DNA of 64,000 nucleotides from Escherichia phage 121Q, in sequence record NC_025447.1; one strand, 5' to 3'. The notes under the pieces were generated by a model, which was not told the DNA's origin, ran no database searches, and saw only the letters and a program-made list of their open reading frames with translations. The position numbers and the translations under genes were made by a program. Shown piece after piece: positions 52,446 through 64,000 of this stretch (its first letter is position 1; each line of letters starts with the position of its first letter).

Positions 52446-53108
52446 ATGATGAAAACAAAATTAGGTTTGTTTTATAAAAATTATTTCGTTAAACAGCGTA
52501 AATTTATAAAAAAATATTTCTCTGGTGAGAAGTCTAGTCCTATAATTTTTAAAAGACCAAGTTATAATACTTACTTAGCTGGTGCTAAACAGTCTAAGAA
52601 ATTTATTACTCTTTTACATAAAAACAAAATTAAAGCTTCTTATGTTGAAACGAGAAGAAACTCATCAATAACTCCTGGTGATTTTATTGAGTACGGATGT
52701 TTCAATATTAAGTACAATGATAATACATACTTTATGGATATTGATTGTAATACATCCAATCTTTTTAACATTGTAGTAAATCCATTAAAACAATATAATG
52801 TTTATGGTGATTCTATTATCAAATTAATCAAAAACAAAGATAGCTTTGATTTTGAAATAAATGTTTTAGATGATAATTTTGACGAAGTACCAGTAAACCC
52901 TGAAATCTGTGATATTTTAAACAGTTTAAAAGGTAGTACCTACAATATATCATCTGATTTAATGTTTCAGTACTCATTAATCCATAAAGATATTGAAAAG
53001 TATATTGAATGCTCCAAAATTTTGAATTATCTTTACGATGAATTTAAAAAGAGTTCTAAAATAACCGCATACACTTTGTACAATATTCCTAAAATGGTGA
53101 ATCTTTGA
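52446..53108 (+). CDS. hypothetical protein (last plus-strand gene)
   Basis: ORF track; 3' end converges on the minus-strand array. Confidence 0.45.
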   Translation: MMKTKLGLFYKNYFVKQRKFIKKYFSGEKSSPIIFKRPSYNTYLAGAKQSKKFITLLHKNKIKASYVETRRNSSITPGDFIEYGCFNIKYNDNTYFMDIDCNTSNLFNIVVNPLKQYNVYGDSIIKLIKNKDSFDFEINVLDDNFDEVPVNPEICDILNSLKGSTYNISSDLMFQYSLIHKDIEKYIECSKILNYLYDEFKKSSKITAYTLYNIPKMVNL

Positions 53109-54241
53109 CAAATACAGTACTGGCAACTCCACCGTCTGTAATATATTGTCCAGTACTGTAAATTTGTATACCATCGGTTAAGTAAGTTCTGTATAAAGTT
53201 GCTGTAACATATACGTTATTCATATTCATCTCTATTGGTAGTACACATTTGGTATAGGCCGACACATCTGTTTGTGTACCTATACCTAATTGACCTGCGT
53301 TATCGCCTGTGTTATAACCAGTTGCGTAAACACCTAATGAAGTTATAATATGATTAGAAAAATATGAATAACCCACACTGCTTCTTATTATATCACCTGG
53401 TGCTTGTGTTGTTTGTCTTAACGAAATATATGTTTGTGATGTAGAACCATTTGCTAACTGACCAAAGTATTGTCCACCACCATGATATGCAAATAATTTA
53501 TTAGTACTATTATTACTTGCTATAGCAAAAGCGAAGTAACTTGAGTTTGTTGTATAATCTTTCACCGTATAGGTATTAGTTATTTGAGAACATAACGTGT
53601 ACTTTGAATATAACGTCATGTCGGTTGTACCTACGCCTGATATTGCACCAGTATAATACAATCTCCCATCGGTTCCAATAAATCCTTGCATAAGAAAATT
53701 TGCCAGTATTTTGGATGGTGTTACTCCAGTAGGTACTGTTCCTTGTACAAATGATGAAAGTGAATCGGTACTTCTACCATTTCCCAGTTGTCCATAACTA
53801 CCATAACCCGTATTCCATATCGTGTTGTCTGTACATAATACGCTTAATGCACCTGCACTAACTGCAATTTGTTTTATTGTTTTTCCAAGTGCTGTTATTC
53901 TATCAAACACTATCTTTGCAGAAGCCCACGTTGTTGACTTATCAGTTGATAAACCGAATGATGCACCATTTCCAGCATACCACATCGTATTATCTTTCTT
54001 TTTAATTAATGTTGACTCATACCCGAACCCATAGATCTTCTACGTTTGTATTGCACAAAACCCATTTGGTTTGTGTTATAATATTACCTATACCCATTTG
54101 CCCAAACTCTTGAGAGCCTCTACTGTACAACGTACCATCTGACATAAGGGCAAAAACTGTTGTATCAGATGAAGCTATTTTTGTAACAGAAGGTTGTATG
54201 TTCTTTTTTGATGATGTGATAATTCTTCCAAAGGGTAGCAT
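53089..54241 (-). pseudogene. RCC1-like beta-propeller paralog, reading frame interrupted
   Basis: N-terminal piece 54017-54241 (MLPFGRIITS...) and C-terminal ORF 53089-53985 with GQLGNG / GQLGIG repeats, separated by stop or frameshift; GGAGGA RBS upstream. Confidence 0.4.
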
Positions 54242-54287
54242 TGTATCCTCCAAATGTAAATCGTTATTATATTTAGGACAAAAAAAT

Positions 54288-54307
54288 GCCAGTACTTTAG
54301 TACTGGC
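54288..54307 (-). terminator. hairpin GCCAGTAC-n4-GTACTGGC at the paralog junction
   Basis: Perfect 8-bp inverted repeat followed by T-run on the minus strand. Confidence 0.45.
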
Positions 54308-54321
54308 ATAGTTTTATAGTA

Positions 54322-55431
54322 TTATTTCGGCATTGTAATTGCAGACCATGAGTTCGTGGTGATAGGACCTGGTACATACAAAAAAGAACCACAAGCATAA
54401 ATTTGATTATTACCATCAAATACTATACTAAAATGTGCACATGTGTATAATGATGATTTTTCTGGGTTGTAATTATCTAAAGTTAGTGTATTGGTGAATC
54501 TACTCAAACCACCTCCCGAACCATTTCTACCAAATTCACCAGTACTGTATATCTTTCCTTCGGTTGTTGCGTACATATTAACATATGAAGTCGAACTTGA
54601 TTTTGATATTTTATGTATCTTACTATCAATAGGAGTGGAGTTAAATGTAAATGGATATACTTGTGTGTTCGTTGTAATACCGTTACCAAGTTGACCAATA
54701 TATTGCCAACCTGCGTTGTATATATTGCTGGCTGAATAAGCAAGAGTACCAGTACTGTTACCACCAAATAGTTTAACACTTGTTAACCTGCTTACTAGTG
54801 TAGTATACTGTCCGGGACTTACGCCAAGTGAACCATACCCACTGCTCCCGCAACCGAGAAGTTCATTATTTGATGTTAATATTAATGTGTTATTCTGTGT
54901 ACCCAATATATCAAGGACTGTATTAGCTCCGGTATTAACAACTGAAACAAAAGTACTCTGAGCAGTGGAATACCCACCACCGAGTGAATAGTTACCATTC
55001 ATGCCTCTACCATAAACAATCGAACCACTAGCATCAACGTAGTGCATTGTATCTGCACCAATTGATATCATTTTAATATTAGATATATGTGGAAATGAAG
55101 AAGTAACATTTAAACCACCCAACGGAATCATAGTATTTCCTGTGCCTAATTGTGTGGTAACTCCATGCATTATGAATTCTTCACCCTTGAGATAAAGAAT
55201 ATTGTACGCACCAGCCCATGCATCAGTAACACCTTCTGAAATTAATATCCAAGTATTTCTTGTTGCTGTATTTTCAACGTTTAACTGCAAATACGTATTA
55301 ACCCCACAACCATAAAGTGAACCATCGCCATAGAGGACGTACAAATTATCAAGACCGCACAGTACTTTCTTTATCTTTGGTGCTTCAGGTGCAATATTTC
55401 CGTACTTAACCATTCTTGTGAAAGGTAACAT
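54322..55431 (-). CDS. RCC1-like beta-propeller protein with MLPF N-terminal module
   Basis: Starts MLPFTRMVKYGNIAP; repeated G-x-LG-x-G segments about every 50 aa. Confidence 0.6.
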   Translation of the reverse strand: MLPFTRMVKYGNIAPEAPKIKKVLCGLDNLYVLYGDGSLYGCGVNTYLQLNVENTATRNTWILISEGVTDAWAGAYNILYLKGEEFIMHGVTTQLGTGNTMIPLGGLNVTSSFPHISNIKMISIGADTMHYVDASGSIVYGRGMNGNYSLGGGYSTAQSTFVSVVNTGANTVLDILGTQNNTLILTSNNELLGCGSSGYGSLGVSPGQYTTLVSRLTSVKLFGGNSTGTLAYSASNIYNAGWQYIGQLGNGITTNTQVYPFTFNSTPIDSKIHKISKSSSTSYVNMYATTEGKIYSTGEFGRNGSGGGLSRFTNTLTLDNYNPEKSSLYTCAHFSIVFDGNNQIYACGSFLYVPGPITTNSWSAITMPK

Positions 55432-55449
55432 AATTTTCTCCTTAAATTT

Positions 55450-62490: not shown

Positions 62491-62495
62491 TTATA

Positions 62496-63635
62496 TTATT
62501 TCCACGGTAGAAGTGAATCAGGAACCCTTGTTGGTACAGTAGTTGAAGACATTCCAGTAAGATTGGGTACACCACATGTGTATAAATTATTATATTCGTC
62601 AACTAACATCGTATAAGAATAGCTCTTACAAAAACTACTAAGATTACTACCTTCTAATGCAGTAAGATCCATTTCAGCGAATGATGTTATATACATATCA
62701 GTTGTACCAATACCACATTGACCATTTGAATTAAGGCCACATGAAAATAACTTATTATTATTATTAATTATACAGGATGGTCCGGTAAGGTTTGTCCCAA
62801 GCTCACCCACCAACTCCACTTCTCCTTGGAATGATAAATTTGGAATTAATGTACTCATTGGGGCTACTGACCTATTTCCTGTACCTGCTTGTCCATAGTC
62901 GTTAATAGATGCAACTTTAACATTACCATCATTAAGAAATATATAAGAAGTTTCATTTGTATTGACTGCTTTAATTGCATTACTAATCGAAGTATCTTGT
63001 GTAAATGTGAGCAAGTTTTGTGTCGTCGTTCCTGATACAAACGTTCTACCTGCATACCAATATGAACCATCATTTAGTACTAATCCAGTACTATATATTG
63101 CACAACCAGCACTGATAACATTTTCTATTGTACTATAGGTGAATCGTGAAACGCTTGAAGTTGATCCATTCCCAAAAACACCACCAGTACCAGCACCACA
63201 GTAGAACCACTTTCCATTTTTTAAAAATACACGCATACACGAAGATATCACAACACTATCAATATCATCTGCACTGACACCGAAATCAGTAAAGTTCTGT
63301 GTTATATCAACCCAAACGCCGTTAGTGTTTGAAGATAGTATTGGAATAACAGTACGTCTACCAGTGTACCAAATAGTACCATCTTTCTTTATAGCAATTG
63401 TTCCTTGTACCCCACCCCAATATCGTGTAACATTTGAGTTGACAAGAGTCCATTCAGTTGAAGAGTCCAATGAACTATTACCACTTTGTCCATATGCTGA
63501 AGAACCAAACCAATATAGATTGCCATTTGTGTGTAAATAAAATTTGGCATCAGCAGAACATTGTAACCTGTTTTTAGGTAGAATCAGTTCAGGTGCGATA
63601 TTCCCGTACTTAACCATTCTTGCAAAAGGTAACAT
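62496..63635 (-). CDS. RCC1-like beta-propeller protein with MLPF N-terminal module
   Basis: ATG at 63635 (MLPFARMVKYGNIAP) after AAGGAGGGAAT; YGQSGNSS / GQAGTGN repeats. Confidence 0.6.
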   Translation of the reverse strand: MLPFARMVKYGNIAPELILPKNRLQCSADAKFYLHTNGNLYWFGSSAYGQSGNSSLDSSTEWTLVNSNVTRYWGGVQGTIAIKKDGTIWYTGRRTVIPILSSNTNGVWVDITQNFTDFGVSADDIDSVVISSCMRVFLKNGKWFYCGAGTGGVFGNGSTSSVSRFTYSTIENVISAGCAIYSTGLVLNDGSYWYAGRTFVSGTTTQNLLTFTQDTSISNAIKAVNTNETSYIFLNDGNVKVASINDYGQAGTGNRSVAPMSTLIPNLSFQGEVELVGELGTNLTGPSCIINNNNKLFSCGLNSNGQCGIGTTDMYITSFAEMDLTALEGSNLSSFCKSYSYTMLVDEYNNLYTCGVPNLTGMSSTTVPTRVPDSLLPWK

Positions 63636-63639
63636 ATTC

Positions 63640-63700
63640 CCTCCTTTATTTGTTATACTATATTTAATACAAATAAGAAAGCCAGTACAGTGTACTGGCA
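63640..63700 (-). promoter_or_regulatory. paralog junction cassette: terminator hairpin + promoter-like box + RBS
   Basis: Near-identical to cassette at 62429-62490. Confidence 0.5.
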
Positions 63701-63705
63701 TTATG

Positions 63706-64000
63706 TTATTTTGGTAAATCAATTTTAGTAAAGACTGCAACATCCTCGATTGCACCTGGAATGGCGTAATACGATCCAGTACTATACACATCTCCATTTT
63801 TGGTTAATATCGATGTCAAACCATCACTAAAAAGAACATCCCTAATCTCACTAACTTCAACGGGTAATTGTAAATTGGTAGCACTATATATAGCACCAGT
63901 TTGAGAATTGTTTAATCCCAAACCACGGTTCGCCCCAACACCCTTCTGATATGTACTAGTAATTACCATTTGTGTAGCAGTATTTAAGGCAGGTGAATTC
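63706..64000 (-). CDS. 3' end of a further paralog (partial; start beyond window)
   Basis: ORF 63706-63969 continues to window edge; same tandem arrangement. Confidence 0.45.
   Translation of the reverse strand, partial: NSPALNTATQMVITSTYQKGVGANRGLGLNNSQTGAIYSATNLQLPVEVSEIRDVLFSDGLTSILTKNGDVYSTGSYYAIPGAIEDVAVFTKIDLPK

Follow-up and report, generated by a model that had tools for sequence, protein, structure and literature searches.

A twelve-residue N-terminal tag on modules of unrelated fold in a gene array of Rak2-like jumbo phages

Introduction

Why would a jumbo phage keep a row of neighbouring genes whose products begin with almost the same few residues and then share little else? The question is raised by a minus-strand array at positions 53089-64000 of a stretch of 64,000 nucleotides (nt) from the genome of Escherichia phage 121Q (NC_025447.1; this whole stretch is referred to as the window). 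We find that no part of the array proteins is better conserved than their shared N-terminal peptide, here termed the tag, that it precedes bodies of at least four unrelated folds, and that it is probably the common determinant by which these modules enter the virion.

Megablast and tblastn assign the window to the genus Asteriusvirus, with SP27, phAPEC6, PBECO4 and slurp01 as relatives. These are Rak2-like jumbo myoviruses of ~350 kb and not T4-type phages, so the T4-type setting in which an earlier, sequence-only reading had seen the locus does not apply to this jumbo coliphage. Nor are the genes themselves new: the published Rak2-like arrays (phAPEC6 gp001-010/549-551, 121Q_234-248, that of PBECO4, and GAP32 gp001) comprise the same genes, with orthologues 95-100% identical. 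Two papers (PMC7247149, PMC5259590) already describe the tandem duplication of the RCC1 array and report, from mass spectrometry (MS), that its products are present in virions, under the label ‘DNA condensation proteins’ and possibly as components of the inner body, which supersedes the earlier statement that no characterised module was known. The text consulted in these papers makes no mention of the tag, of its Kelch, lectin and polyglycine carriers or of the repeated cassette described below, and we found no description of the tag in the literature on jumbo-phage capsid targeting, on Rak2-type cryo-electron microscopy with propellers, or in the Sharanji paper. With genes and virion association known, what is new is a clade-wide, fold-independent tag, apparently maintained at the protein level, and a repeated expression cassette.

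Results

Conservation of the tag

The tag comprises 12 residues, M-(L/I)-P-F-x-R-hydrophobic-hydrophobic-x-Y-G-N, and takes the form MLPFxRM(V/I/M)xYGN in the window. A degenerate DNA pattern for MLPFxRM matched nine times in the whole window, always within 53089-64000, compared with 0.01 matches expected from shuffled sequence. An alignment of 36 RCC1 paralogues, drawn from five phages, shows ~20% identity between bodies; M1, P3, F4, Y10 and G11 of the tag are invariant, together with three glycines of the body, and R6 and N12 are nearly so.

Copies within Asteriusvirus differ hardly at all in their tag DNA, as had been noticed from the window alone, and this near-identity reaches upstream of the ATG into a cassette of ~65 nt. 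Farther away, the residues are kept and the codons vary. For each of the invariant P, R, Y and G, two to four synonymous codons are found in the Salmonella phages Munch/7t3 and the Erwinia phage Hallingskeid. A metagenome contig (L005), reached via the distant match P0007—a word-indexed protein search with an RCC1 paralogue gave nine matches—holds four consecutive tagged genes that lie ~10 nt apart, without a promoter/terminator cassette between them, and encode one RCC1 and three non-RCC1 bodies. The Xanthomonas phage XaC1 has a diverged tag, MFPIPxISxYGN. Because distant relatives vary the codons and keep the residues, comparison of coding sequences indicates that the tag is under selection at the protein level. 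A pure DNA-level repeat as the sole explanation is ruled out by the synonymous codons and by the arrays without an intergenic cassette; within Asteriusvirus, homogenisation may contribute. More than 200 tagged open reading frame (ORF) entries, including duplicates from overlapping loci, show neither a conserved Glu nor a prohead-protease motif (L/I-x-E) after the tag.

Folds of the bodies

The array members in the window, all on the minus strand, are the following (aa, amino acids).

53089..54253, minus: terminal, decaying member; N-part at 54017-54253 with the degenerate tag MLPFGRIITSSKKNIQP
54286..54309, minus: terminator-like hairpin and T-run upstream of the terminal copy
54322..55431, minus: gene A, tag and RCC1-like propeller, 369 aa
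55434..55811, minus: C-terminal remnant of gene B, ~125 aa, RCC1 repeats, out of frame
55812..56621, minus: gene B, tag and frameshift-truncated RCC1 body, 269 aa
56731..57910, minus: gene C, tag and RCC1 body, split into a 68-aa stub and a 341-aa ORF
57983..59134, minus: gene D, tag and RCC1-like seven-bladed propeller, 383 aa; the copy modelled
59205..60353, minus: gene X, tag and RCC1-like propeller, 382 aa
60425..61162, minus: gene G, tag and glycine-rich (polyglycine/‘brush’) domain, 245 aa, not RCC1
61234..62424, minus: gene E, tag and RCC1-like propeller, 396 aa
62496..63635, minus: gene F, tag and RCC1-like propeller, 379 aa
63706..64000, minus: 3′ end of the next member (369 aa in full)
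Tag starts, minus: 54241, 55431, 56621, 57910, 59134, 60353, 61162, 62424, 63635

The sequence-only reading had counted ten genes with the same N-terminus. Nine matches fall in the window and the tenth start, that of the member at 63706-64000, lies ~815 nt past its end in the source contig (IMG/VR UViG 2706795820, 348,532 bp), which holds at least two more array members beyond; the tag of the terminal copy has decayed. Counted from the MLPF start, the products measure 245-396 aa and not 250-430 aa as first given, the 427- and 433-aa ORF versions being extensions into the upstream non-coding cassette. We take the MLPF ATG as the true start because an AAGGAGG ribosome-binding site lies 5-8 nt before it.

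Of the nine copies, eight have RCC1 or RCC1-like-domain repeats recognised by Pfam, with PF13540 and PF00415 above their gathering scores in most of them (for example, 45.5 bits versus 22 and 36.1 versus 21.7) and PF25390 E-values down to 5e-29. The expectation of an RCC1-like body in every copy thus held for eight, and failed for the glycine-rich gene G. An AlphaFold2 (AF2) model of gene D, built on the 36 paralogues, reached a predicted local distance difference test (pLDDT) score of 88.1 and a predicted template modelling (TM) score of 0.87, and Foldseek matched it to the propellers of UVR8, RPGR, HERC2 and RCC1 (E 1e-20 to 1e-15, TM 0.7-0.8), the plant photoreceptor UVR8 being the best match. 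The beta-propeller fold, which the sequence-only reading had proposed, is thus upheld by structure prediction, and tandem repeats recognised by curated profiles together with a predicted seven-bladed fold place these bodies in the RCC1-like domain superfamily. With RCC1, UVR8, RPGR and the RCC1-like domains of HERC proteins they share the seven-bladed propeller and the GxxGQLG repeats, but identity is only 15-20%, and the N-terminal tag sets the phage proteins apart. For a bacteriophage, there are no grounds to expect the guanine nucleotide exchange (Ran-GEF) or chromatin functions of that superfamily.

Gene G belongs to phrog_4474 (197 homologues, many with Pfam PF21722) and, by both sequence and fold, is a member of the polyglycine-rich or ‘brush’ domains (PF21722, Gly_rich_2). 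The model of the glycine-rich body scores a pLDDT of 93.6 and is closest in structure to external tail-fibre and tail-tip proteins; polyglycine/brush domains are regarded as antireceptors (PMC13243795). Overall, the array proteins contain 34-49% Ser, Thr, Asn and Gly and 10-17% charged residues, and are neither strongly basic nor strongly acidic.

In both models, the first ten residues are the least confident and belong to no sheet (pLDDT 59 in gene D, where the first strand begins at residue 22, and 50 in the glycine-rich body), and the tag is accordingly predicted to be flexible and to lie outside the fold. Given the resemblance of its ‘YGN’ to the RCC1 ‘WGxN’, we considered whether the tag closes the propeller as a ‘Velcro’ strand. 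AF2 puts it outside the fold, at low confidence, and the idea was rejected also because the tag occurs on non-propeller bodies.

Distribution of the tag

The tag occurs on at least four unrelated folds, namely the RCC1 propeller, the Kelch propeller, a ConA/LamG-like jelly roll and the polyglycine domain; tagged bodies further include an RCC1-Kelch fusion and several ~245-aa domains without an assigned fold. No enzyme domain was identified among the tagged bodies by Pfam or fold search, all identified ones being binding-type folds. What had been read from the window as a short invariant N-terminus on variable bodies therefore extends to distant phages, at the protein level, and across four folds. 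Searched against 2.9 million IMG/VR contigs, the degenerate DNA pattern for the tag matched on nine only, all of 348-378 kb, and the metagenome scan returned 28 stretches, ~23 of them genuine tagged arrays with up to nine tagged genes. By this pattern search, the tag is confined to this clade of ~350-kb jumbo phages. Two metagenomic tagged proteins have 676 aa (L018:1903-3930) and 690 aa (L040:11755-13824); the first is an RCC1-like propeller fused to a Kelch propeller, and in the second Pfam recognised only a C-terminal Kelch domain.

Phage CBB has no RCC1 copy. Its ten tagged genes carry other bodies and lie partly at the syntenic array locus (CBB_548-554) and partly elsewhere (CBB_536/537 and CBB_247). 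Upstream of CBB_554 (L012, 5352-7238) are leftovers of more tagged genes, namely the stub MLPFPQLVVL, ending in a stop codon, and the C-terminal end of a polyglycine protein (..GGAVRIIYGDDRSFPNT..), which point to turnover of array members.

Homologous polyglycine and LamG-like bodies also occur in the rV5-like phages (~150 kb), preceded there by a different N-terminal motif, M(L/I/E)E(L/M/A)(L/M)L.... Examples are found in phage 4MG (L031, 8953-9603 and 13936-14589) and among the matches P0014-P0045, with the forms MEEMLL.., MLEAML.. and MLELL... The pattern of motifs suggests lineage-specific plugs for one shared module repertoire, the rV5-like motif possibly being an analogous tag system. 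In phage W70, too, RCC1 proteins are virion components (PMC11370258).

Presence in virions

For phAPEC6, the published proteome (PMC7247149) lists gp003, 005, 006, 007, 009, 010, 549 and 551 as found by electrospray ionisation tandem MS, the RCC1 proteins with 1-5 unique peptides and 3-17% coverage. Eight of 11 RCC1-like proteins are thus recovered from virions, versus 62 of 551 ORFs overall (hypergeometric p = 2e-6); they include gp005, the orthologue of gene D, and gp007 (30 kDa), the counterpart of the truncated gene B. In CBB, eight of the ten tagged proteins were found in CsCl-purified virions with 1-8 peptides (PMC5259590), an enrichment with p <= 7e-6 whatever plausible total of detected proteins is assumed. 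Among the six MS-detected structural proteins of CBB that are absent from GAP32, five are tagged, and GAP32 gp001, itself tagged, is reported as structural. The virion data of JP4 contain two tagged proteins with a single peptide each and lend weak support only. Virion presence, which the sequence-only reading had proposed, is thus borne out for orthologues and other tagged proteins in phAPEC6, CBB and GAP32.

The repeated expression cassette

Seven genes are preceded by the near-identical ~65-nt cassette, which consists of a hairpin (GCCAGTAC-loop-GTACTGGC) with a T-run, the motif TATTAAATATAGTATAAT and a ribosome-binding site, AAAGGAGG, 5-8 nt before the ATG. An 18-mer of the cassette is absent from the rest of the 64-kb window. 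The copies map as follows.

56639..56687, minus: cassette with hairpin GCCAGTAC..GTACTGGC, T-run and promoter-like TATTAAATATAGTATAAC
57928..57976, minus: cassette with promoter-like motif and terminator hairpin
59151..59201, minus: cassette
60370..60417, minus: cassette
61179..61227, minus: cassette
62442..62489, minus: cassette
63652..63699, minus: cassette

A cassette is missing in front of gene A, whose ribosome-binding site overlaps the stop of gene B’s original frame.

Structural genes of phAPEC6 carry a T4-late-like TATAAATA ~35-55 nt before the start codon, ATAAATA has been reported for late genes in CBB and GAP32, and a gp55-like late sigma factor is encoded by both CBB and phAPEC6. 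The array motif TATTAAATA equals the structural-gene TATAAATA with one inserted T; late expression of the array is plausible from the motif, and because of the additional T we only infer its timing. The TATAAATA element, present upstream of phAPEC6 (L033) gp225c, 226c, 231c, 232, 238 and 245, is useful for the annotation of late genes in Asteriusvirus.

Module exchange and damaged copies

Most orthologues shared among this phage, SP27 and phAPEC6 have identities of 95-100% (98.6% between gene A and its SP27 counterpart), but gene order and content differ. Gene X, between D and G, is extra relative to SP27, where its best match reaches 67% identity; phAPEC6 gp001 is 100% identical to one downstream member, for which the closest SP27 gene reaches 65%; and another downstream member occupies a different position in SP27. 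The shuffling of cassettes suggested by the sequence-only reading is therefore visible between near-identical phages. We infer that the near-identical repeats of ~110 nt, made up of cassette plus tag, are the recombination substrate: they would act as sites of homologous recombination through which modules are gained, lost and moved.

Three copies are damaged, namely the terminal copy, gene B and gene C. In the terminal member, the RCC1-like C-part (53089-53985) is in a different frame from the N-part owing to a frameshift, and SP27 has only a 107-aa remnant at this position. The truncated form of gene B also occurs in SP27 and phAPEC6; either the partial propeller can function or ribosomes read through the frameshift, the tail being still readable out of frame. 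Gene C is broken by a +4 (ATGG) duplication near 57,700, a third ATGG copy (ATGGATGGATGG here versus ATGGATGG in SP27), whereas its SP27 orthologue is intact (391 aa); the short tandem repeat may have slipped, the gene may be a pseudogene, or the assembly may be in error.

Neighbouring genes

Converging on the tagged array is a tandem set of small multi-pass membrane-protein paralogues (112-141 aa) on the plus strand at 49952-52404. In CBB (CBB_539-547, ‘putative membrane protein’), SP27 and phAPEC6, the syntenic position is likewise occupied by small-gene arrays, and the membrane-protein and tagged arrays may be functionally linked. The last plus-strand gene (52446-53108, 220 aa) overlaps the minus-strand 53089-53985 convergently by 20 nt, with no terminator-like site called between the two.

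Discussion

How might such an array work? Each gene would encode one compact, beta-rich binding domain preceded by the flexible 12-residue tag, in most cases with its own terminator hairpin, late-promoter-like motif and strong ribosome-binding site. The tag would be a common docking peptide that fits a single virion site shared by all modules, most likely an external one, for example at the tips or shafts of the hair-like fibres or on other tail appendages, and the mounted modules would bind host surface structures. That the tag attaches exchangeable host-binding modules to the outside of the virion, with the repeated cassettes allowing them to be swapped, we regard as having about an even chance of being correct. 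An outside position is favoured because one body type structurally resembles tail-fibre or brush antireceptors, because every identified body is a binding fold, because the composition is fibre-like, and because the hair-like fibres have unassigned components and small terminal globules. Such fibres are seen on phAPEC6 and CBB, without assigned gene products, the small terminal globules in CBB. An early idea, that the array proteins are not hair components since CBB has hairs and no RCC1, was dropped when CBB turned out to have ten tagged proteins. More tentatively, the tag could be a portable plug that mounts the at least four unrelated folds on one socket of the hair-like fibres or tail appendages; equally tentative is its description as a natural plug-and-display system for host recognition, with cassette exchange and an independently evolved counterpart in the rV5-like phages.

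A known parallel is offered by the modular receptor-binding proteins of phages, such as those of multi-tailspike phages or gp38 on the gp37 tip in T2 and S16, which likewise combine a conserved attachment end with a variable binding end and exchange modules between relatives. The S16 gp38/Bxb1 ‘brush’ antireceptor domains fall into the same structural class as the polyglycine body (PMC13243795). Yet their anchors are folded and span tens to hundreds of residues, whereas the tagged array, which has the conserved N-terminus and exchangeable distal binding domain, has an anchor of only ~12 residues; its modules are modelled as single globular domains, and many co-exist as separate genes with a promoter each.

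Several points weigh against external docking. The virion data come from relatives (phAPEC6, CBB and GAP32) and not from this phage; MS on virions reports presence, not position on or in the particle; and the peptide counts are low (1-8), while some virion preparations also hold non-structural proteins. Predicted flexibility, moreover, is weak evidence when it concerns a 12-residue end. Foldseek matched the RCC1 propellers to no phage fibre structure, only the polyglycine body type doing so. The one-T difference between the array and structural-gene motifs counts here as well. Finally, the flank at 38000-53000 is also mosaic relative to public phages, and for this reason we do not claim the array, unexceptional on this comparison, as a hotspot.

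The main rival is capsid targeting in the manner of the T4 internal proteins (IPI-III, Alt), which had also been suggested from the sequence alone. Here the tag would bind the scaffold or core while the prohead assembles, and the modules would travel inside the capsid, perhaps within the inner body observed in phAPEC6, until they leave it together with the DNA to bind and neutralise variable host defence proteins. The parallel is a real one: a shared N-terminal peptide of ~10-12 residues on unrelated, fast-evolving proteins that are carried in the virion, at low copy in our case, and a locus that in T4 is hyperplastic between close T-even relatives and is plastic here too. Moreover, the inner body of phAPEC6 is of unassigned composition, these phages encode a T4 gp21-type prohead protease, and beta-propellers are versatile protein binders. 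But the array, which has the shared peptide and (in relatives) the virion presence, lacks the defining feature, a conserved (L/I)-x-E protease site after the tag, a Glu at position ~16 occurring in some copies only. The T4 capsid targeting sequence is MKTYQEFIAE, which the tag does not resemble. T4 internal proteins are small charged proteins or enzymes; the array bodies are lectin, propeller and brush binding folds of 25-43 kDa, neither strongly basic nor acidic, and none of those identified (lectin, Kelch, propeller, brush) has a typical effector activity, several ~245-aa bodies being unassigned. One body type is nearest to external tail-fibre and tail-tip proteins, and low abundance is ill-suited to an inner-body scaffold. 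With the site absent and the body types pointing outward, we consider capsid targeting unlikely.

Less probable still is that the tag serves another step—a phage chaperone or assembly factor, a modifying enzyme, or turnover—and that the bodies themselves account for virion presence. A short, flexible N-terminal peptide without a known partner would suit such a role, and these phages do encode GroES-like and Clp-like proteins. However, each of four unrelated folds would then need its own route into the virion, the tag being their only common feature; in CBB, tagged genes at three separate loci give virion proteins; and the rV5-like homologues of these bodies bear a different, lineage-specific N-terminal motif, which fits a lineage-specific docking site.

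The database annotation as proteins of DNA or chromosome condensation, which would organise the packaged 350-kb genome, draws on the RCC1 name, on virion presence and on a speculation in the phAPEC6 paper (PMC7247149). We think it very improbable and find no support for the label, which is based on the family name alone: RCC1-like domains are generic propellers, here with UVR8 as best structural match; the proteins are not basic, have few charged residues and are of low abundance; and relatives have Kelch, lectin-like and brush domains behind the same tag and at the same locus, CBB having no RCC1 at all. Lastly, the idea that the shared N-terminus is a by-product of gene conversion that homogenises a promoter and ribosome-binding-site cassette and reaches into the coding region can practically be set aside: it would account for the near-identical tag and 5′ cassette DNA between copies of this phage, but not for residues kept with varied codons in distant relatives, for their retention in tightly packed genes without such a cassette, or for the Xanthomonas phage tag, diverged yet recognisable.

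If the tag is indeed a docking peptide for external binding modules, the misleading annotation as ‘DNA condensation protein’ would be replaced in dozens of jumbo-phage genomes, and 10-15 genes per genome would gain a role, as possibly would the unexplained hair-like fibres. It would also provide a simple rule by which host-interaction modules could be recognised from sequence in jumbo-phage metagenomes and, should the 12-residue peptide suffice for virion incorporation, a practical handle for the display or packaging of foreign proteins on therapeutic jumbo phages.

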